From an uncultured archaeon (GTDB lineage Archaea > Iainarchaeota > Iainarchaeia > Iainarchaeales > 1-14-0-10-31-34), in NCBI GenBank assembly GCA_964608675.1, contig CAZSOZ010000005.1, forward strand, positions 1-64,000: 64,000 nt of DNA, in the 5' to 3' direction. The notes below the pieces were generated by a model. That model did not search any database. It saw nothing but the letters and a program-made list of their open reading frames with translations, and had not been told where the DNA came from. A program made the translations under genes and the position numbers. Shown here in pieces: positions 9,083-45,987 of the stretch (position 1 is its first letter; the number at the start of each line of letters is the position of its first letter).

Positions 9083-10054
9083 TTATCCGCATTCTTGATT
9101 ATGTAATTCCTGCAATTTATTTGCAGTGGATTCATATTCTTTTGCTTTTGTCTGGTTTTCTTCAGTCAAAGAATGGTATCTGTATCCTTGGTATGAAACA
9201 AACACGTAATCGCATAACTCTTGAATGCCTGTACACAAGTCAGTGTTTTCGCATGCCTGGAACTGCCAGCTTTCTCCTTCAGGATGAATCCATACAATCC
9301 TGCATCCATTTATTGTTTCGCATGAATCAAGCTTATCGCAGTAAGAACAGCATCCGGGACTGCATTTACTGCATTCTTTTGGTTCAAACATTAATGTTTC
9401 GCATAATTCTTTTTCACAAAAATTTTCAGAGCAGTATTCAATGCATGCATTTCTGTTTTGAATTTTTTCACAGTATTCTGAATTAAATTCTGAATCCCAT
9501 TCACAGAATTCCTGCCATTCCTCACATTCAAAACTATTTTCTTCCATGCATTCTGCTTTCTTTTTGCTGCAGTCTTCTTTAAGGTCATCAAAACTAAACG
9601 GGTTTTCCACATGTTTTTTTAGTACATTAATTATTTCTGTTTTAACTTTATCAAATGCATCCACATTAGTGTTAACTACATTAACTGTCTTGTTTTCGCC
9701 TTCTGCAGTAATTGAAATTTTTGAAAAGCCTCCGTCCATTATACTTGGATCATCATAATTGTTATTTAATCCAAAAAAACTGTTCACTATAACTGCGTCA
9801 TAAATTTTTTTTCTTTCTTGTTCGCTTACTTTGAATTCGTGTTCTTTTGTTAAATTCATTCCCATACTTTTTTTGAATACTCCGTTGCCTTTTGAATCAA
9901 TGCTTAATTCGTAATGCCCCCATTCCAAGTGCATTGCTCCTGATTCATATTCCACTGAAAAATCTGATGGAAGTGTTTCAGGAGGCTGAGGCGGATTAGG
10001 GCATCCTGCGAACATTAATACAGCCAAACAAATAAACAAAACTGTTTTTTTCAT
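9083..10054 (-). CDS. secreted lipoprotein with Cys-rich C-terminal region
   Basis: Lipobox-like LMFAGC; many Cys in the C-terminal half. Confidence 0.65.
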   Translation of the reverse strand: MKKTVLFICLAVLMFAGCPNPPQPPETLPSDFSVEYESGAMHLEWGHYELSIDSKGNGVFKKSMGMNLTKEHEFKVSEQERKKIYDAVIVNSFFGLNNNYDDPSIMDGGFSKISITAEGENKTVNVVNTNVDAFDKVKTEIINVLKKHVENPFSFDDLKEDCSKKKAECMEENSFECEEWQEFCEWDSEFNSEYCEKIQNRNACIEYCSENFCEKELCETLMFEPKECSKCSPGCCSYCDKLDSCETINGCRIVWIHPEGESWQFQACENTDLCTGIQELCDYVFVSYQGYRYHSLTEENQTKAKEYESTANKLQELHNQECG

Positions 10055-10093
10055 TTTAATTACTAATAAGAATTAGTTATATTTAATTGTTAT

Positions 10094-10147
10094 TGTCTGT
10101 TCGTTGGTCTTTTTTCTGGAGAAAAATTCCCTCCTCACGGATTCGCA
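10094..10147. repeat. 54-bp direct repeat of the tRNA-Tyr 3' end plus downstream flank (att-like)
   Basis: Ungapped 44/54 match to 12641-12694. Confidence 0.8.
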
Positions 10148-10187
10148 AAAAGGTTTTTGGTTAGAAGAAGGAAGTTTGCAGTCCATT

Positions 10188-10472
10188 TTATTTCCTCTTG
10201 TAAATGTTGTCGTGGTGGTCAAACTTGTCAAACAATATGTGTTTTTCTTCTTTTATGACTTTGAAAAGCAGGACAAAACTTTTTGCGATATGAACTCTTT
10301 TGTATTCTTTTAGCTCATTTCTCAGGTTTTTGTAGTGTTTTATTGTTGTTTTATCTGAATTAATTATTTGCTTGATTTTTTTGTTTAGTATTTCAACAGT
10401 TTTTTTGTCTCTTTTTGCAACAACTTTTATTGTCGCTTTAACTTCATCTGACAGGTCAAAAGAAAAAGACAT
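10188..10472 (-). CDS. RelE/YafQ-superfamily toxin
   Basis: YKNLRN.LKEYKRVHI..SFVLLF...FDHHDNIY; directly downstream of the antitoxin. Confidence 0.78.
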   Translation of the reverse strand: MSFSFDLSDEVKATIKVVAKRDKKTVEILNKKIKQIINSDKTTIKHYKNLRNELKEYKRVHIAKSFVLLFKVIKEEKHILFDKFDHHDNIYKRK

Positions 10473-10733
10473 TTATTCTCCTCTGCATATTTTGTCCAGT
10501 TCTTTTATGCTCATTTTCCTGAAGCCATATTTTTTTATGTGTCTGTTGCAGGATTCAATTACTTCTTTTATAACCTCTTCCTTAACTTCAGGTTCAACAA
10601 ACTCTTCGCCATACATTTCAGCGAATTTATCCATGGCGTCTCCTTTGTCTTTTAAGCCGTATTTTTCTTTTACTACGCCTAAAACTCTGTTGGTATAGTC
10701 TTTTACTTTAAGGTTTACAGTAACTTCTCCCAT
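10473..10733 (-). CDS. antitoxin (DUF2683-like)
   Basis: NRVLGVVKEKYGLKDK..A...EPEVKEE pattern; adjacent to the toxin. Confidence 0.7.
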   Translation of the reverse strand: MGEVTVNLKVKDYTNRVLGVVKEKYGLKDKGDAMDKFAEMYGEEFVEPEVKEEVIKEVIESCNRHIKKYGFRKMSIKELDKICRGE

Positions 10734-10798
10734 ATAATTTCACCTAATATAAAATTAGTTCAACTAATTTATAAATGTTTCTTTTAATCCGCTCGGCG

Positions 10799-10853
10799 TG
10801 CAGTCCAGCTTTATGCTGGACGTTTTGGCAACTTGCCTTTTTTTAAAAGGCAG
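10799..10853. repeat. double-hairpin repeat module (GTCCAGC-TTTAT-GCTGGAC plus GCCTTTT..AAAAGGC)
   Basis: Degenerate copy at 43503-43559; first hairpin inverted at 49566-49588. Confidence 0.7.
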
Positions 10854-10897
10854 ATTCCCACCTCCCAGCCTTGCTCTACGGGTGCAATTCCCGCCGG
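10854..10897. repeat. 44-bp inter-cassette repeat (tRNA-Tyr 3' end plus T-arm-like hairpin)
   Basis: 39/44 identical to 11460-11503. Confidence 0.85.
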
Positions 10898-10901
10898 ATT
10901 T

Positions 10902-11030
10902 TTATAATTCTGCTAATTGTGCATAAAAGTCTTTGTATTTTTTTAGGTCTGCTTTGACTATGCCTTTGATGTCTTTCCATTCTGCCATTGTTATTGGCTC
11001 TCTTTTCCCTTTAATTTTTATTGTTTTCAT
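10902..11030 (-). CDS. 42-aa putative Doc antitoxin (missing from the ORF track)
   Basis: MKTIKIKGKREPITMAEWKDIKGIVKADLKKYKDFYAQLAEL*, starts 5 nt after the doc stop. Confidence 0.6.
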   Translation of the reverse strand: MKTIKIKGKREPITMAEWKDIKGIVKADLKKYKDFYAQLAEL

Positions 11031-11035
11031 TTTTT

Positions 11036-11398
11036 TCAGTCCTTTCTTGTGTGGTTTGCAATCCATGTAACTATTTCATTTAATTGTGTTTTTGGTTTAA
11101 CTGACCATATCACTACATTAAATCTTGATGTTTCGCCAACCTTTAATTCTTTTCCGTTCAGTTTCAAAAAAGCAGTCATTGCCTGGAATGCTGTTCTTTT
11201 GTTTCCGTCTGCGAAAGCGTGCCTTCTTGCAATATCCATTAATAAAGTGGCTGCTTTTCTGTCTATTCCCCTTGTGTTTGCCACTTTGTAAACAATATGG
11301 TCTATTTCTCCTTCGCTTCTAATTATTCCTTTGTCAAATTGTTTGTTTATTTCAATTATTGCTTCTTTTGAAAGTGTTTTTGCATAAATCCTTGCCAT
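11036..11398 (-). CDS. Fic/Doc family toxin
   Basis: HAFADGNKRTA Doc motif. Confidence 0.88.
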   Translation of the reverse strand: MARIYAKTLSKEAIIEINKQFDKGIIRSEGEIDHIVYKVANTRGIDRKAATLLMDIARRHAFADGNKRTAFQAMTAFLKLNGKELKVGETSRFNVVIWSVKPKTQLNEIVTWIANHTRKD

Positions 11399-11453
11399 GC
11401 ATTAATTCTGTAAATTACAGAATTTAAACATATTGTTTTCTGCTTGCTAAAAT

Positions 11454-11503
11454 AGAAAAATTCCCGCCTCCCAACTCTGTTCTACGGGTGCAATTCCCGC
11501 CGG
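11454..11503. repeat. inter-cassette repeat containing the tRNA-Tyr 3' end
   Basis: AGAAAAATTCCCGCCTCCC is 18/19 to 12667-12685; the rest matches 10854-10897. Confidence 0.85.
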
Positions 11504-11527
11504 TTTATGTTGCAAGTTCCTTGTTTT

Positions 11528-11917
11528 TTATAATTCGTATAGTTCTTTTATTTTTTGTTTTACTTCTTTTAATTTTTGGCTGGAAATTTTTCCAGCTTTT
11601 TCTGTAATTACGCTTTTTTCTATTGTTGTGGGAAAATCAGTTAAGATTTTACTGTCAACTCTAAGTTCGCCTTTTACCAAATCTTTATTGGTTAATTTTA
11701 AGTCATATTTTTCCTTTGGTTCTGTGGAAGAAATGCTTAATACAATCAAGTCTTCAGATTTTCTATTATAATTTGAGTTGCTTATTACAAGAACAGGTCT
11801 TCTTTTGAATCCAACTTGTTGAGAATAAAGAATGTTTGCGATTATTATATTTCCTTGTTCAAAATTTGAATAACTTTTCTGCATCCTCTCCCTCTTCAGC
11901 AAGTCTCCTGTAGGCAT
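11528..11917 (-). CDS. MazF/PemK toxin (true start probably the downstream MQKSY)
   Basis: QGNIIIA...[13 protein letters not shown]....DLIVLSISS. Confidence 0.85.
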
Positions 11918-12065
11918 AAACTCTCAAGCGATCTTTCTCAATTGCTTCAAGAAGCTTAGCTTTTTCTTCTATTGCTTTTCTTGCTACTTCAGTCCACTTA
12001 ATTTCAGAATGCTTTTTCATTATGTCGTGAAGTTCTTTTGGAATTGCCATAGTCATATTAACCAT
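11859..12065 (-). CDS. ribbon-helix-helix antitoxin
   Basis: [30 protein letters not shown]; overlaps the toxin start. Confidence 0.75.
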
Positions 12066-12150
12066 TCAATCACCTTAAATAAGTAAGATAAGTAAACTTA
12101 TTAAATTTATGTTTTGTTGTTTGTGGTTGGAGGTTTGGAGTTCATAAGAG

Positions 12151-12387
12151 TCACAGATATTCTTCAAATTCTTTTCTGCTGATTTTTAGTTCGTGCTTTA
12201 TTATTTTGTTTAGCAGTCCTTTTGGAATTTCTTTTCCTTTGTGGAAGGGAATTGTTAATACTCTTCCGTCTGGATTATAGAATGATTTGTGTGAGCTTTT
12301 TTGTCTTTTTTCTTCAAAACCCATTTTTTGTATTATTTTAATTAGTTTTTCTGGTTTTATGGGTTTGAGTTTAGGCATAAACAGCAA
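12151..12387 (-). CDS. hicA: HicA toxin
   Basis: GF...RQKSSH......G..LTIPFH..KEIPKGLL..I. Confidence 0.85.
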   Translation of the reverse strand: MLFMPKLKPIKPEKLIKIIQKMGFEEKRQKSSHKSFYNPDGRVLTIPFHKGKEIPKGLLNKIIKHELKISRKEFEEYL

Positions 12388-12604
12388 CTTTTTTTATTGC
12401 AATGAATTTTGGTTCTTCTTCTTTTTTGACTTCTTTTAGTGTTTCCAAATGCAATTCAATTGCTTCTTTAATGTTTTTCATTAGTTCTTTTTCTGTTTTT
12501 CCTTGTGAATAGCATCCATGCAGTTCTGGAACTGAACCAATAAACCAGCCGTCTTCATCTTTTTCTACTAATACATCAAATTCTTTTGCTTTCAACTCTT
12601 TCAC
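12371..12604 (-). CDS. hicB: HicB antitoxin (short form)
   Basis: EKDEDGWFIGSVPELHGCYSQG.T..E...NIKEAIELHL. Confidence 0.85.
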   Translation of the reverse strand: MKELKAKEFDVLVEKDEDGWFIGSVPELHGCYSQGKTEKELMKNIKEAIELHLETLKEVKKEEEPKFIAIKKVAVYA

Positions 12605-12674
12605 CTAATAACATATTAGTTCAATCTGAATAAAAAGATTTGTCTGGTTATCGGTCCTTTTTTTGGAGAAAAAG

Positions 12675-12845
12675 TCCCGCCTCCCGGATTTGCACCGGGG
12701 ACCTCTCGGTGTCCGCTTACCTGCTTCTGTGCGGGTGGAACGGCGCAGTACTTCGCTTTGCTCAGTACAGCTGTCACTCCTAACACCTTTTTCAGTGTTT
12801 GCAAAAAATCTACAGCCGAGCGCACTACTACTATGCAAAGGCGGG
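12675..12845 (-). tRNA. tRNA-Tyr(GTA) with 99-nt intron (12711-12809) at position 37/38
   Basis: CCCGCCT/AGGCGGG acceptor, CTCGG-CT-GTA-G|A-CCGAG anticodon arm, BHB (CTGT/GCGG, bulges AGA and ACA). Confidence 0.9.
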
Positions 12846-12893
12846 TTCCTGTGATTAAGAAAAATTTGTTTAATTAAAGTTAAAAGCTTATTA

Positions 12894-13778
12894 TTAAACT
12901 TGTTTTGAAGGATTTAAAGCTTTTTCGTATAAAACCGGCACAATAACTGAAACCCATAATCCTAAAAACATCATTAAAATAAATTGAATTGGGTCAGGCA
13001 AACTGTATGGCCTTAAAATTATTGGAAAAGTAATTAATCCCATTCCCATGAATCCAATCACTGTTTTTGTCAGAACATCTCTTCTTGAAATTCTTTTCTG
13101 TTGGAAGTCAATTTCTCTCATAAAAAAGAAGCCTCCATAATAACCAAAAAATAATCCTAAATAAACTAATTGAGGGGTTAAAATAAACAAAACAATTGCT
13201 CCTATAACCATTAAGGCAACTAAAATTTCATCCTGTATTCTGCTTAATTTTAAACTGTAATTATCAAATTTTTGTATGAATTGTTTGCTTGTTAACCCAA
13301 TTAATGTTCCTAAAACCACTCCTACTATTACATCTGAAGGAAAATGTGCTCCTAAGTAAACTCTTGAGTATGCCACTAAAATTGTTGCTATTCCCAAACC
13401 AAAAACAATTAGTTTATTTTTGTGGTTTAAAAAATAACCAAAAATTGCTGCAATAGTTGTAGAGTGCCCTGAAGGAAAACTAAAGCCTCCAAATCGTTCA
13501 TAAACTAAAACTCTGAATCCTTGTTTAACTGAAGGCCTTGGTTTATGAAAAAACTCTTTTGCTGCTCCAACAATTAAAACAGAAAAAACGATTAAATTCA
13601 TTAAATGAAATGATTCTTTTTCTTTTCCTTTCCAGTAAAAAAATCCCACTAAAAAAAACCATAAAAGAGGGCTTCCTAATTCAGTTAATCCTCTTACTAA
13701 ATAATCCATGTAATATACTGGAATAGGGTAAAAATTTTGTACTGCTTGCAGTATTGTTGTGTCAGAAAATTCCAGCAT
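12894..13778 (-). CDS. PAP2-family membrane phosphatase
   Basis: K....PRP, FSFPSGH, SRVYLGAHFPSDV. Confidence 0.88.
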   Translation of the reverse strand: MLEFSDTTILQAVQNFYPIPVYYMDYLVRGLTELGSPLLWFFLVGFFYWKGKEKESFHLMNLIVFSVLIVGAAKEFFHKPRPSVKQGFRVLVYERFGGFSFPSGHSTTIAAIFGYFLNHKNKLIVFGLGIATILVAYSRVYLGAHFPSDVIVGVVLGTLIGLTSKQFIQKFDNYSLKLSRIQDEILVALMVIGAIVLFILTPQLVYLGLFFGYYGGFFFMREIDFQQKRISRRDVLTKTVIGFMGMGLITFPIILRPYSLPDPIQFILMMFLGLWVSVIVPVLYEKALNPSKQV

Positions 13779-19633: not shown

Positions 19634-19720
19634 TCACTAAATAATGCGTATCGCACTTAGTTAAAAACTAATTAAAAGTATACTCTAAAATTTATTTTTT
19701 AATACGATTTTTTTGTTTTT

Positions 19721-20818
19721 TTATTCAAGTTGGTGTATTGGAGTATTGTTTCTTTCGCTGATTTCTTTGAGTATATCGTATTCCATTAAGTTAGCACAAA
19801 AACTTATTGCTTTTCCTGTTTTTCCCTGTCTTGCAGTTCTTCCTATTCTATGCAAATAAGCTTCTGTTTCTTTTGGAAAATCAAAGTTAACTACGTTTCC
19901 TATGTCATCAACATGAATTCCTCTGGCAACAACATCTGTTGCAATTAATATTCCGTCTTTTGATCTCTTGAATTCTTCTATTATTTTGTTTCTTGCTCCT
20001 TGTTTTTTGTCTCCATGGATTGCCAAAGTTTTAATTCCTTTTTTTGATAATTGTCTTTGAAGCCAGTCAACAGATTTTTTTGTTCTGCAGAAAACCAAAG
20101 TTTTTGAGTTATCTGTTGCCAAAAGCCTGTATAATGCATTGAGTTTTTCTTTACTGTTTACCATTATATAGTATTGCTGTATTTCTTGTACTGGGGCATT
20201 ATCTGTGCTTAAATCAAATACTATTTTGTCTTTTTTTAAGTGTATTTCAATTAATTCAAGTATTTCTCTTGGCATGGTTGCAGAAAAAAGCATTGTGTGT
20301 TTTTCTTTTGGAAGAAAAGAAATTATTCTGCTTACGTCGTCCCTGAAACCCATATCAAACATTTTGTCTGCTTCATCCAAAACCAAATATTTTGTTTTGT
20401 TTAAATATAAAACTTTTCTTGAATTTAAATCCAAGAGTCTTCCTGGTGTTCCAACAATTATTTGCGGTTTTCTTTTAAGCAAATCAATCTGCCTTTTAAT
20501 GTTTTGTCCGCCAAAAACTGCTATTACAAACACGTTAGTGTTTCTTGCAATTGAAGCAATTTCTTCTTTTACCTGCAAAGCTAATTCTCTTGTTGGGACC
20601 ACAATTAAGGCATAATCGTTTTTTTCTTTTATTTTTTGTATTAAGGGTATTGCAAATGCAGCTGTTTTTCCTGTTCCTGTTTTTGATTTTCCTACAATAT
20701 CTTTTCCTTTTAGTATTTCAGGAATTACTTTTTCCTGTATTTCTGAAGTATTTTCAAAGCCTTTTTTTTGAAGTGCATTTTGTATGCTGTCATCTATGTT
20801 TAGTGTATTAAATTTCAA
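19721..20818 (-). CDS. DEAD-box RNA helicase
   Basis: TGTGKT, PTRELA, GTPGRL, DEAD, SAT, HRIGRTAR. Confidence 0.95.
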   Translation of the reverse strand: MKFNTLNIDDSIQNALQKKGFENTSEIQEKVIPEILKGKDIVGKSKTGTGKTAAFAIPLIQKIKEKNDYALIVVPTRELALQVKEEIASIARNTNVFVIAVFGGQNIKRQIDLLKRKPQIIVGTPGRLLDLNSRKVLYLNKTKYLVLDEADKMFDMGFRDDVSRIISFLPKEKHTMLFSATMPREILELIEIHLKKDKIVFDLSTDNAPVQEIQQYYIMVNSKEKLNALYRLLATDNSKTLVFCRTKKSVDWLQRQLSKKGIKTLAIHGDKKQGARNKIIEEFKRSKDGILIATDVVARGIHVDDIGNVVNFDFPKETEAYLHRIGRTARQGKTGKAISFCANLMEYDILKEISERNNTPIHQLE

Positions 20819-21450
20819 TTAAATCATTCTCCTTTTAAAAAAGAAATAAAAAAAATAACGCTATTTTAATTCAGTTTATTTAAACTGAAATCAAATATTT
20901 TTCACTTAAGAAAAAAAATAGAGTTATTAAACATTTTTTCTTTTTTTATTAAATATAATTGTAAACAAAAAGATTTTTAAATACGGTTTTCATTTTAATT
21001 TTAAAGGGGAAACAACATTTCTTCTTATAAATCGTTAATTGCTTTATCAATTCTTTTGTACCCTGCTTGTGTTATTTTTTTCATTTTGTTTTTAATTTCA
21101 TTTTTGTTGTTTGAAAAGTACAAAAAAACGTAACCTCCTTTGAAAAGATTTTTTTGTTTTCTTTTACATCTATACTTTAATTTCTGTTTTATTGTTTTTT
21201 TCTTTCATTTCATTACTTTTTTTGTTTCTTCAAAGTTAATTACATCTCTGAAAAATTGGGTAAATAGGCACTAATAGTTTGTTTGCCATTATTTTAATTC
21301 TTTTTTGGGGTAGTGACTCAAAAGGGATTTAAAAATCACAACTGAAATTAAAATAAAATAATTTAAATTACAGCCAAGCTTTTTTTTCATAAATTTTTAG
21401 GATAGAATTTCTTTTTCTTTTTTTATTTTTTTTGCTGTTTAGTTATTTGA

Positions 21451-36660: not shown

Positions 36661-36730
36661 AAGTTAAATATTGTTTTAACTACTATTTATTTTTTTCCAA
36701 AGCCCCTGTTATCCAAAACTAATCATTTAG

Positions 36731-36998
36731 AGCCTCTAGGGGGATTTGAACCCCCGGCCTACTGATTACTCGGTTCCGCCCGAGTGTGACGGTGCACGCC
36801 GTAAAGGCGTGCTAGCACTGCTTTATGCAGTGCTTCGGCACTCACGCTCGAAAGCGTGACGGTGCAGGACATTCACTTTGTTCAGTCCAGCTGCCAAAGC
36901 ATGACAGCCCTGTCGAGCTGAAAGCGAAGACAGTGCTCCGTGTTAAACCGGCGGAACGGTTTTACAAGTCAGTCGCTCTGCCACTGAGCTATAGAGGC
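36731..36998 (-). tRNA. tRNA-Thr(TGT) with 196-nt intron (36767-36962)
   Basis: GCCTCTA/TAGAGGC acceptor, ACTGA-CT-TGT-A|A-TCAGT, CTTG/CGAG helix with TAA bulge, GGTTCAAATCC. Confidence 0.92.
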
Positions 36999-43559: not shown

Positions 43560-44228
43560 TTATTCTTTGCCTATTCTGCTTTTCACTTCTATTTTTCCGT
43601 CGCATAAAATTATTCTGTCTGCGTAACCAACAAATAATCCTGTTTCTAGTACTCCGGGAATTTCTTTTGCTTGAAATTCAAATTCTTCTGGAGAAGGAAT
43701 TGAATCAGTTAAAACATCAATAATGTAGTTGCCTGACTCAGTTTTTGTAATGTTTTCTTTTTGTTTTCTTTCTTTTGCTGCTCCAAACGATTCCAACTGC
43801 ATTTTTGTTCTTTTCCACCAGAAAGGGCTTGTTTCAAAGGGAACTACTCCAAACATTTTTGAAACAAGATTCTTTTTTTCTGTTATTACAATTAAGGTTT
43901 CTGCGCTTTGTGCAATCATTTTGTCTCTTACAAAGCTTTTTGATTTTCTTTTAATATAATTATAGTTGTGGTCAACTAAATCAGCAAATTCTACTGCTAC
44001 ATCAACTTCTTTTTCATTTAATGAAATCATTTCTAAATTCAATTGCTTTAAAATTAAAGTCATTTCAGCTGAAGTAGGAACAATTTTTAATTCAAGGCCT
44101 TCAATTTCTTTTCTTAAAGCCATTTTTTTTAAAAACTTTATTCCTAGTTCACTTGAACCTATTCCAATTGTTTGCCCGTGCTTAATGTATTTTTCTATGA
44201 GTAATTCAATCTGGTCTTCTGGAATCAT
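43560..44228 (-). CDS. rpiA: ribose-5-phosphate isomerase A (divergent)
   Basis: IGIGS, IVPTS, TESGNYIID, IPGVLETGLF; catalytic motifs divergent. Confidence 0.72.
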   Translation of the reverse strand: MIPEDQIELLIEKYIKHGQTIGIGSSELGIKFLKKMALRKEIEGLELKIVPTSAEMTLILKQLNLEMISLNEKEVDVAVEFADLVDHNYNYIKRKSKSFVRDKMIAQSAETLIVITEKKNLVSKMFGVVPFETSPFWWKRTKMQLESFGAAKERKQKENITKTESGNYIIDVLTDSIPSPEEFEFQAKEIPGVLETGLFVGYADRIILCDGKIEVKSRIGKE

Positions 44229-44334
44229 TCAAATCAGTTATAATACGCTTTTCTGATTAAAAAAACTACTGCTTTTATAAAAAAGGTTTTTTCTGGAACC
44301 CTTAAAATGTTTTTGGTTTTTTTTATTTTATTGA

Positions 44335-44955
44335 ATGTATTCTGATAGTCCTTCTTGGGATTTGCATTGGAAGGAAATAAATAAATTTCTTTTTTTTTAT
44401 GAAAGAATTCAAGAAAACCAGTTTAAAATGTATAAGAAATTAATTGGAAACAAGATTTCTTCTAATTCAAAGATTCTTGAATTAGGCGGAGGAAGCGGAA
44501 TTTTAAGCAGTCGATTAGTCAATGAATATGATTGTGATTCAGTTATAATTGATAATTCATTTAAAGCAAAACAAATTTTTGAAAAAAAACAGCCAAACAA
44601 AAAAATTAATTACAAGTTAATGAATGCATTTGAATTAAATGAAAAAAACAAGTATGATTTAGTTTTTTCTGATGGATTAATAGAACATTTCACTGGAAAA
44701 AAACAAGAAAAATTAATTGAAATGCATAAGAGTGCAGTCAAAGATTCCGGCAGTATTATTTTGGTTGTGCCAAGAAAATCCAAAAGATATTTTATTTTAT
44801 CAAATTTAATGAAGTTTTTTGGTTTATGGAATTTTGGATTTGAAAAACCTTTTTCTTTAATTGAACTAAGAGGATTGTGTACAAAAAACGGTTTAATGGT
44901 TCATAAAGATTTTAAGGGAATTTGGGAAATTGCAGTTATTTGCTCCAAGCTTTAA
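44335..44955 (+). CDS. class I SAM-dependent methyltransferase
   Basis: ILELGGGSG, YDLVFSDGLIEHF. Confidence 0.82.
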   Translation: MYSDSPSWDLHWKEINKFLFFYERIQENQFKMYKKLIGNKISSNSKILELGGGSGILSSRLVNEYDCDSVIIDNSFKAKQIFEKKQPNKKINYKLMNAFELNEKNKYDLVFSDGLIEHFTGKKQEKLIEMHKSAVKDSGSIILVVPRKSKRYFILSNLMKFFGLWNFGFEKPFSLIELRGLCTKNGLMVHKDFKGIWEIAVICSKL

Positions 44956-45809
44956 ATTAAAAGCAAAACCAATCCAAGAACAGAAACAATTATTGCTAAA
45001 TATTTTGTTTTAGATAATTTTTCTTTTAAAAAAATTCTGGCTAAAACTGAAGTCAGAACAGGAGTTGGAGCAACAACTATTGCAGTTAAGGAAGCCCCAA
45101 TTAATGCAATAGAAAAATTATATGCAATTGAACCAATAACCAATAAAACTGCAGAGCCAAACAATAACAGATTGGCTTGTTTTTCCTTTAATTTGATTTC
45201 TTTTTTTGTTAACAAAGAATAAATTAATATCATGAAAAAAATAGCGGACTCCAAAAACATTGAAGCATTAAATGGATTTAATTCTAATACAATCGGCTTA
45301 ATTAAAGCAAAATATGTTCCCCACCCAAAAACTGTCAGCAAAGCAAAAATCGTTCCTTTTTCTATTAAAAATTTTTTTTCTTTTCTTTCCAATGAAAGCA
45401 AAATTAAAGCAGAAATTATCATTAAAACTGCAATCCATTGAAGAAAAGAAAGGCTTTCATTGAATAATATAACTGAAATTGCTATTGTAACTAAAAAATA
45501 GTTTTTTGCTATTGCGGTAGCCAAACTAACAGTGGTTTGCTCCATTGCCTTAAAGAAAAAAATTATTGCTGCGCTTCCGATAACACAAGTAAATAAAAAG
45601 TATGGAATCATTGTGTTTGGAAGAAATTTTATTTCAGTGAAAATCAGTGCAGCAAAAATCACCAGAAAAAAAACAAAAAAATACCTTATACTTAAAGCAT
45701 TGAATGCCTTCAGTTTTTTGAGCGCGCTTTTGTCAAAAATTCCTTCTGCTCCCCAAGAAAAAAAGGAAATTAATGCATACATTGCTTGAATCATTAAATT
45801 AATAGGCAT
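44952..45809 (-). CDS. EamA/DMT-family transporter
   Basis: ~10 TMs, two EamA repeats (LFNE.L, FLKEKL). Confidence 0.82.
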   Translation of the reverse strand: MPINLMIQAMYALISFFSWGAEGIFDKSALKKLKAFNALSIRYFFVFFLVIFAALIFTEIKFLPNTMIPYFLFTCVIGSAAIIFFFKAMEQTTVSLATAIAKNYFLVTIAISVILFNESLSFLQWIAVLMIISALILLSLERKEKKFLIEKGTIFALLTVFGWGTYFALIKPIVLELNPFNASMFLESAIFFMILIYSLLTKKEIKLKEKQANLLLFGSAVLLVIGSIAYNFSIALIGASLTAIVVAPTPVLTSVLARIFLKEKLSKTKYLAIIVSVLGLVLLLI

Positions 45810-45833
45810 TAACTGTATTTATTTTTTAGGGAA

Positions 45834-45905
45834 AGCCTCCGGCGGGAATTGAACCCGCGACCTTATCCTTACCAAGGATACGCTCTACCACTGAGCCACG
45901 GAGGC
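45834..45905 (-). tRNA. tRNA-Thr(GGT)
   Basis: GCCTCCG/CGGAGGC acceptor, TATCC-TT-GGT-AA-GGATA, GGTTCAATTCC. Confidence 0.94.
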
Positions 45906-45987
45906 CTAAAAGAAAGAACTGAGTGAAAAAAAGTTTATTAAGTAATTCGCTGTAAAATTAAGTTTGTTTCATTAATATTGCTTTATG

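Follow-up and report, generated by a model that had tools for sequence, protein, structure and literature searches.

The window analysed here is a 64,000-nt stretch of contig C5 (CAZSOZ010000005.1) of assembly GCA_964608675.1, from an uncultured archaeon of the order Iainarchaeales, and the subject is its tRNA-Tyr gene together with the array of small toxin–antitoxin (TA) genes downstream, which is interspersed with copies of the tRNA 3′ end. The assembly comprises 53 contigs and 1.2 Mb at 32% GC and is 94% complete. It was compared with 41 related genomes of the order, of which G001–G005 belong to the same genus, and all comparisons are based on metagenome-assembled genomes (MAGs). Positions are those of the window, and the tRNA-Tyr gene, the array genes, the repeats and sites, and the two genes flanking the locus all lie on the minus strand.

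The tRNA-Tyr(GTA) gene (12674–12845) carries a 99-nt intron and gives a clean cloverleaf in ARAGORN with introns allowed, while default ARAGORN and Rfam find no tRNA near this position and Rfam gives no relevant match over 9500–13500. ARAGORN with introns allowed reports 48 tRNA genes in the assembly, 22 of them with introns of 28–478 nt, and this is the single tRNA-Tyr detected among them: a second ‘Tyr’ call (36730–36998) has CTTGTAA as its anticodon loop and proves to be Thr(TGT). More generally, intron-bearing tRNA genes escape default ARAGORN and Rfam, and the intron-aware mode, apart from labelling Thr(TGT) as Tyr, labels the tRNA-Tyr of several relatives as Asp or Asn. Upstream of the tRNA lies a PAP2 phosphatase gene (12894–13778; PF01569), detected in 36 of the 41 genomes; its adjacency to tRNA-Tyr is conserved and anchors the locus across the order. 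Beyond the far end of the array follows a DUF6438 lipoprotein gene (9083–10054; PF20033).

Downstream of tRNA-Tyr stand eight small genes, all co-oriented with the tRNA, as are all the sites described below. Going outward, a HicB-like antitoxin (77 aa, 12371–12604; PF15919, E = 1.5e-10) and a HicA toxin (78 aa, 12151–12387; PF07927, E = 1.7e-18) are followed by a putative ribbon–helix–helix (RHH)/VapB-like antitoxin of MazF (68 aa, 11859–12065; a weak NF050799 match, E = 2e-4), which is kept together with MazF in G001, G002, G004 and G007, and by the MazF/PemK toxin itself (11528–11917; PF02452, E = 2.4e-17). Next come a Doc toxin of Fic fold with the motif HAFADGNKR (120 aa, 11036–11398; PF02661, E = 4e-8; TIGR01550, 51.6 bits, above the cut-off) and a small open reading frame (ORF) of 54 aa, or 42 aa from an inner ATG (10902–11066), which has no family match, is conserved in G002 and G003 and is a putative antitoxin by its position. 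The last pair consists of an 86-aa protein (10473–10733), by position the putative antitoxin of its neighbour, and a YafQ/RelE-type toxin (94 aa, 10188–10472; TIGR00053, E = 7.7e-17, below the cut-off; RelE_StbE, E = 4e-4; weak Pfam YafQ and YhaV matches besides). The two are conserved as a pair in G002, G003, G005 and G006. The 86-aa protein has no Pfam or NCBIfam match, DUF2683 included, and a PDB sequence search with the YafQ-like toxin gave E values of at least 0.1.

A known toxin family beside a small partner gene, the mark of a type II TA system, is thus found for HicA/HicB, MazF, Doc and the YafQ-type toxin. The first-pass annotation had read four TA pairs here, and for the four toxins and HicB the families bear this out; of the partners it proposed, the RHH protein is only weakly VapB-like, and neither the DUF2683-like assignment nor the mini-antitoxin of Doc has a family match. 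In a comparison with a defence library, Doc alone matched candidate families, by way of its Fic fold. The gene families, and these only, suggest a possible antiviral or stress role for the array. Each cassette appears, from its sequence, to have its own A/T-rich TATA-like box upstream. The leaders of the YafQ pair (10738–10763) and of HicB (12599–12624) share 26 nt at 88% identity, including a GGTGA ribosome-binding motif, and may represent a common promoter/operator module.

The eight genes are bracketed by a direct repeat of 55 nt with 45 of 55 positions identical (82%), whose distal copy lies at 10093–10147 and whose proximal copy, at 12640–12694, consists of the final 21 nt of tRNA-Tyr, from the T-loop onward, and 34 nt of T-rich downstream flank. 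In the distal copy this 34-nt flank continues into a promoter/leader common to G005 and G004. The repeat far exceeds chance expectation, as 60 dinucleotide-preserving shuffles of 9500–13500 gave, for the top ungapped 55-nt pair, 34.2 ± 0.8 matches and never more than 37. A second repeat pair lies inside the array (10845–10900 versus 11451–11506; 56 nt, 82%), and both of its copies carry the terminal 11 nt of tRNA-Tyr, GGGAGGCGGGA, hereafter the core. The core of the tRNA itself occupies 12675–12685; its copies are exact at 11462–11472, have one mismatch at 10856–10866, and two at 10128–10138. In the whole 1.2-Mb assembly, the pattern TTCCC[GA]CCTCCC is confined to the two inner copies, and the exact 11-mer occurs at 11462–11472 and in tRNA-Tyr and nowhere else.

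The core copies fall at module boundaries, with the one at 11462–11472 separating MazF from Doc and the one at 10856–10866 separating the small ORF after Doc from the next gene pair, so that the last three of the four gene pairs are each followed by an attachment-type (att-like) site with a core derived from GGGAGGCGGGA. The inserted DNA is thus bounded by direct repeats of the 3′ part of a tRNA, and the 3′ end of tRNA-Tyr is the primary attachment site of the array. The bracketing repeat and its tRNA origin, both proposed in the first-pass annotation, are therefore real, and its statement that internal copies lie exactly between modules is correct at ~10856 and ~11462 and fails at the junction of HicA and RHH-MazF, where no core copy is present. 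Its suggestion that the same logic operates at tRNA-Thr did not hold up: a genome-wide scan found no duplication of the 3′ end and flank outside the gene for any other tRNA of the set of 48, tRNA-Thr among them (E < 0.01), and the stretches downstream of tRNA-Thr(GGT), at 44951–45572 and 43566–44284, are conserved in G005 (77% and 82%).

The sites fall into two classes that share the core. A class A site consists of a CA-rich arm, a T-loop half (GCAAATCC) and the core, and its T-loop half matches that of the genome's own tRNA-Tyr, being GCAAGTCC in G035 and GCAACTCC in G037. A class B site consists of a conserved arm of ~35 nt, GGCGGGAGTTGCAC(C/T)C..AGA..GTT, and the core. Both inner repeats of the window are class B (11460–11508, nhmmer E = 4e-14, with the exact core; 10854–10902, E = 1.7e-12, with the one-mismatch core), and the array ends in a class A site (10128–10182; class A profile E = 1.3e-4), formed by the distal copy and the 35 nt that precede it, with CA-rich arm, T-loop half and the decayed core GTGAGGAGGGA at 10128–10138. 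By-eye comparison with class A arms revealed a further CA-rich stretch at 12111–12142, lacking the T-loop and core part, to which the class A profile gives no score. Homology to the MazEF cassettes of relatives stops at 12106–12145, and the stretch would mark an old junction between HicBA and MazEF whose core has been lost.

Across the assembly, the class A and class B profiles find no match outside the tRNA-Tyr locus. In the relatives, they add degenerate sites to those located by the 11-mer, namely one in G005 (E = 3e-8) and two in G002:C20, and arms of both classes are retained beside unrelated cargo. RNAalifold predicted no pairs and no consensus fold for 25 class B sites (class A was not folded), and class B is therefore not attC-like. 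The tail of the tRNA-Tyr intron was rejected as the general source from which the class B arm was copied, since same-strand local alignment of six class B arms beat 300 shuffles (p < 0.01) for one arm of the six. A 16-nt pattern, used to look for a virus or plasmid carrying the site, gave nine matches, all in unrelated viral-contig contexts of 55–67% GC, and an 18-nt junction pattern, used to look for near-identical strains in metagenome contigs, gave 12 matches, all attributable to chance. Of nine public runs, each in the form of contigs, one contained every sampled word and is possibly the source, and another contained a share of 0.56; these shares carry no information on excision or strains. 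Read on the opposite strand, the class B arms at 10880–10899 and 11486–11505 give CGGGTGCAATTCCCGCCGG, which by eye is identical at 18 of 19 positions to the T-arm/acceptor end of tRNA-Thr(GGT) (45833–45906) and whose 7-nt loop resembles the tRNA-Tyr T-loop in inverted orientation; this likeness raises the question of a second attachment specificity or of an inversion.

The same architecture recurs in the relatives. The exact 11-mer occurs 70 times in 28 of the 41 genomes, versus seven times for a reversed control, and 15 genomes have it clustered on the same strand of a contig, with copies spaced by ~0.46–3.2 kb apart from two larger gaps of 6.3 and 11.4 kb. The cluster includes the core of the tRNA-Tyr gene in 11 of these 15, ten of them beside PAP2, and the clusters in G002, G003, G004 and G016 (C3/C4) are on contigs without the tRNA or PAP2. 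Contigs of the relatives commonly end at, or within tens of bases of, a copy of the 11-mer, as expected for repeated or strain-variable DNA. Among named genome records, a strict class B pattern matched eight archaeal MAG records and none other. The titles of two of them name Candidatus Iainarchaeum and Candidatus Micrarchaeota, which places the feature in DPANN archaea.

What stands behind tRNA-Tyr differs across all five same-genus relatives. In G001, an unknown gene of ~450 aa, a membrane protein with MazEF, and a Fic gene are found, with copies of the tRNA end between them; in G004, glycosyltransferases; in G002, an integrase; in G005, a secreted protein and then the YafQ pair; and in G003, the contig stops after 66 nt. 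In G005, the tRNA continues directly into sequence found after the distal repeat of the window, as an empty site would, yet this genome has cassettes of its own behind degenerate class A sites, one of which (E = 3e-8) follows the first gene.

The cargo was surveyed in the 139 ORFs, out of 222 with a length of 55 aa or more, that lie within arrays or next to them, and the G007 ORFs were scanned separately. Fic proteins of ~310 aa are commonest among the 139 (ten proteins, plus one Doc-like), followed by PIN (seven), MazF (four, plus one in the separate scan), HicA (two) and GNAT (two), along with methyltransferases and one insertion sequence (IS) transposase. Among defence models, SoFic and PDC-S04 are matched by a relative's ~310-aa Fic cassette. 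The arrays thus consist of small co-oriented cassettes whose content varies between relatives, with some of the relatives' cassettes inverted. We read the array of the window as three to four such cassettes: HicBA, now fused to RHH-MazF; Doc with its small ORF; and the 86-aa antitoxin with the YafQ/RelE-type toxin.

Each of these modules recurs elsewhere in a different setting. The YafQ pair block (~10127–10800) is found in G002, G003, G005 and G006; the Doc cassette (10901–11472) in G002, G004 and, as a remnant, G003; the MazEF block (11525–12145) in G001, G002, G004 and G007; and the HicA(B) block (12158–12402) on a cassette contig of G004, at 93.1% identity. The order in the window is HicBA, MazEF, B, Doc, B, YafQ pair, A, and the order on G002:C20 is radical-SAM, B, MazEF, A, YafQ pair, A, Doc. 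Doc stands behind a class B core in the window and behind class A cores in G004:C128, G003:C39 and G002:C20, and the homology of the Doc cassettes between arrays begins at the 11-bp core. The Fic cassettes of G006 and G016, of which one follows a class B site and the other tRNA-Tyr itself, are likewise homologous at the nucleotide level from the first core base. Since a given cassette can be joined to arms of different classes and the switch falls precisely at the core, these 11 bp are the most probable place of strand exchange.

Some cassettes are also far more similar than the chromosomes that carry them. The Doc cassette is 91.7% identical to that of G002 and 90.6% to that of G004, compared with 72–85% for chromosomal blocks against same-genus relatives and 75–77.5% for the backbone on the very G002 contig that carries the 91.7% cassette. 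Fic proteins are 91% identical between G001 and G006, 77% between G006 and G016, and 65–66% between G019 and either G001 or G006, and the PAP2 proteins of those genome pairs are 33–44% identical; both Fic genes of the 91% pair are on contigs that also bear PAP2. G003 and G032 share a Fic protein at 67% identity, with the G032 PAP2 outside the comparison. Sequence similarity of this kind indicates that the Doc, HicA(B) and Fic cassettes are exchanged laterally. In accordance with the variable content, the reordered modules, the homology from the core onward and the excess similarity of cassettes over backbone, the description of the locus in the first-pass annotation as a bank of swappable modules is a fair one. 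That annotation had also named what would speak against it, namely TA content that is invariant across relatives and breakpoints that do not coincide with the repeats. The tRNA-Tyr flanks of the relatives vary in content and break at the 11-bp core, and the idea therefore survives its own test.

No PF00589 match is present on the contig of the window, and integrase domains or fragments, PF00589 included, were found in 0 of the 139 array ORFs of the relatives. Elsewhere in the assembly, PF00589 matches are on contigs C1, C36 and C52, and a close homolog of the tRNA-Tyr-type integrase was not found in this 94%-complete assembly. In four of the 41 relatives (G007, G002, G024 and G038), a tyrosine integrase directly adjoins tRNA-Tyr, intact in G007, G024 and G038. 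The one in G007 is a 287-aa tyrosine recombinase (PF00589, E = 1e-24) belonging to an 11.4-kb element that has the tRNA core at one end and, at the other, a class A site with 26 nt of identity, and the G002 homolog is 78% identical over 102 aa up to the contig end, which cuts the gene. Further homologs adjoin tRNA-Cys, Asn, Glu and Ser. The earlier statement that no integrase is present thus applies to the island, and to close homologs in this genome, and not to the relatives, where a cognate enzyme sits beside the same tRNA. Contigs C36 and C52 are of 1.6 and 1.0 kb and carry other tyrosine integrases, one of them beside tRNA-Phe; these contigs may be fragments of mobile elements that failed to assemble, or errors of binning.

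Taken together, these data mark the 3′ end of tRNA-Tyr as an attachment site in this order, and the locus looks like a shared docking site for swappable genes. We think it probable, though far from certain, that tRNA-Tyr is an integration hotspot whose array of integrase-less cassettes grows and is reordered through site-specific recombination within the 11-bp core, by an integrase provided in trans. Mechanistically, a tyrosine integrase specific for tRNA-Tyr would join circular DNA that bears such a site to the tRNA or to one of the internal sites, and a crossover within the 11-bp core would restore the tRNA. The newcomer would be placed next to the core, displacing older cassettes outward, and recombination between two cores in direct orientation could excise or shuffle cassettes. 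As no close integrase homolog is present in the genome, the array would change only when an integrase arrives in trans, and TA pairs would dominate because they resist loss; they may also provide abortive-infection defence. The sites and their two classes, the variable content, the breakpoints at the core, the lateral movement of cassettes and the integrase next to tRNA-Tyr in relatives are demonstrated, and we infer the acting enzyme, strand exchange within the core, the circular intermediates, the action in trans and the reason for the TA enrichment.

Several observations weigh against this interpretation. The junction between HicA and MazEF has a core-less arm alone and no copy of the tRNA core. 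The island has no integrase, and the best match to the tRNA-Tyr-type integrase in the assembly is an Xer-like gene on contig C1 (E = 2e-14). The outer repeat runs 34 nt past the tRNA, which does not follow from simple serial insertion at the core and needs an incoming circle that already carried the flank. The 3′ side of Doc is a class B arm in the window and a short tRNA-like site in G002, with Doc homology between the two stopping at the stop codon, and MazEF is followed by class B in the window but by class A in G001, G002 and G004; the 3′ arm therefore does not always travel with its cassette, which a simple model of one site per cassette does not predict. The YafQ pair and MazEF are 71–78% identical to those of relatives, like the backbone, and half of the array may thus have been static for long. 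Several cassette contigs are short (3.6–4.8 kb) and could be misbinned, many contigs of relatives end at sites, and neither a circle nor a deletion joint nor strain polymorphism was seen for the array.

Some of these observations would be accounted for if the small units had never been mobile, and the array were the scar left by large integrase-bearing elements that integrated serially at tRNA-Tyr and decayed, with the addictive TA pairs surviving. The 11.4-kb integrase-bearing element at the same site in G007, the backbone-like divergence of the YafQ pair and MazEF and the one junction without a core are consistent with such a history, and integrase-gene loss after integration and tandem integration are described in archaea (PMC8371274). 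It does not explain why Doc, HicA(B) and Fic cassettes, ~0.6–1.1 kb in size, exceed the backbone by so much in similarity between species or families, or why the same 5′ boundary at the core recurs in different arrays, since independent decay to identical boundaries in several lineages is improbable, and none of the 139 array ORFs holds an integrase domain or fragment. We regard a history of scars only as unlikely. Somewhat less likely again is an exchange by host recombination after DNA uptake or cell contact, in which the ~50-nt sites would act as portable homology and no dedicated integrase would be needed. Whether a shared cassette follows class A, class B or tRNA-Tyr, its homology sets in at the 11-bp core, leaving only 11 bp in common on that side, too little for general recombination, and a cognate integrase family is present at this very site in relatives. 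The conservation of arms across cassettes, the left arms that are not always with the same cassette, and the lack of a detected integrase in this genome argue for host recombination nonetheless, as does the 55-nt outer repeat, which with its 34 nt of non-tRNA flank resembles Campbell insertion through longer homology.

The co-orientation of the eight genes and all sites with the tRNA could also suggest a role at the RNA level, in which tRNA-like pieces serve as processing signals that cut a long transcript from the tRNA promoter into cassette mRNAs. We give this very little credence: the copies comprise the 3′ strand of the acceptor and T stem alone, so that a tRNA-like fold is impossible, the 25 class B sites yield no consensus structure, each cassette seems to have a TATA-like box of its own, and the variable content would be left unexplained.

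Beyond the window, site-specific recombination with the integrase in trans could be extended to a wider claim, which we put forward tentatively and would not call probable. Here DPANN archaea would possess an integron-like gene-capture platform, in which the single-copy tRNA-Tyr is the acceptor and has only an 11-bp core in common with two families of ~50-nt cassette-borne sites. Visiting tRNA-Tyr-specific integrases, carried on larger elements and acting in trans, would insert and excise one- or two-gene cassettes (TA, SoFic-like defence, acetyltransferases) and pass them from family to family within the order. DPANN archaea have tiny genomes, and how they acquire genes is little understood. 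A conserved docking site at tRNA-Tyr would give them a definite path to accessory genes, its stock being TA and defence-type cassettes for which exchange between genera and families is demonstrated. It would also mean that the problem met by bacterial integrons has been solved a second time, independently, in evolution. Its few parts, namely the 11-bp core, the two types of arm and a candidate integrase, are compact enough for bench tests.

Parts of this arrangement have precedents. In streptococci, tandem accretion occurs with integrase-less elements that are mobilizable in cis, and Acinetobacter plasmids carry pdif modules, which are small, often TA-bearing and bounded by short inverted XerC/XerD sites, with the recombinase encoded elsewhere. 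The sites here differ from pdif in being tRNA-derived direct repeats, and no dif-like 11-6-11 site was seen by eye at the array, where no formal dif search was done. The tycheposon islands of Prochlorococcus are built by serial integration of tyrosine-recombinase elements at one tRNA, which leaves partial tRNAs and pushes older elements outward (10.1101/2020.12.28.424599), and they resemble the present locus in using a tRNA 3′ end as the attachment site, in the partial tRNA copies between modules, in the outward displacement of older units by newcomers, in remnants without integrases and in content that varies between close relatives. Unlike in those islands, the host here is a DPANN-type archaeon, the units are mostly 0.5–1.5 kb with one or two genes, the two site classes share only an 11-bp core, an integrase stands beside tRNA-Tyr in four of the 41 genomes searched, and no replication or packaging genes are seen.

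Within the archaea, tandem integration and attR-type tRNA fragments are known (PMC6563490, PMC8371274, PMC9897764). Elements with pNOB8-type non-partitioning tyrosine integrases, such as PYG1 at tRNA-Gln, share with the present loci the direct repeats of the tRNA 3′ part, an integrase beside the tRNA (intact in G007, G024 and G038, cut by the contig end in G002) and tandem integration (PMC9897764, PMC8371274, PMC6563490); such elements are single, 10–40 kb long and equipped with their own integrase, unlike the integrase-less mini-cassettes of the window. With integrons, both the Vibrio superintegron and the archaeal ones (PMC9668308), the arrays share small co-oriented cassettes rich in TA, acetyltransferase and defence genes, one recombination site per cassette, a shuffled order between relatives and lateral exchange of cassettes. 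The superintegron likeness drawn in the first-pass annotation goes no further, and the array is not an integron: no IntI adjoins it, there is no attI or Pc, the class B sites are neither imperfect palindromes nor conserved in fold (folding covered class B alone), a tRNA gene serves as the primary site, and promoters seem to be borne by the cassettes themselves. The integrons known from archaea are of the attC/IntI type, and a term search of the main text that describes them found no mention of tRNA (PMC9668308). Serial tRNA integration that leaves partial tRNAs is thus known, and in literature listings and abstracts we came across no earlier account of DPANN archaea with mini-cassette arrays behind tRNA-Tyr.

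A few further observations concern the surroundings of the arrays. In G002, G003 and G005, the array is adjoined at its far end by a DEAD-box helicase gene, which in G004:C125 sits beside a single class B site. In the window, this gene (19719–20987) lies across the tRNA from the array, at a distance of ~7 kb, and the locus has therefore been rearranged around the array. In G006:C2 (1917–2792, L029), an IS-type DDE transposase (rve) lies directly behind tRNA-Tyr, before the cassette array. In G003:C61 (3008–9286, L036), two class B-type sites enclose a 6.3-kb block with a MoxR ATPase, DUF58, VWA and a Na+/H+ antiporter, whose homolog in the genome of the window is on another contig, C4. Finally, in G003:C39 (2887–4288, L047), pgk and gap are separated by a class A site, the remnant of a Doc cassette and two small genes. 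In the genome of the window, pgk and gap adjoin each other (C1:267041–269212), and the G003 cassette set has therefore landed away from tRNA-Tyr.

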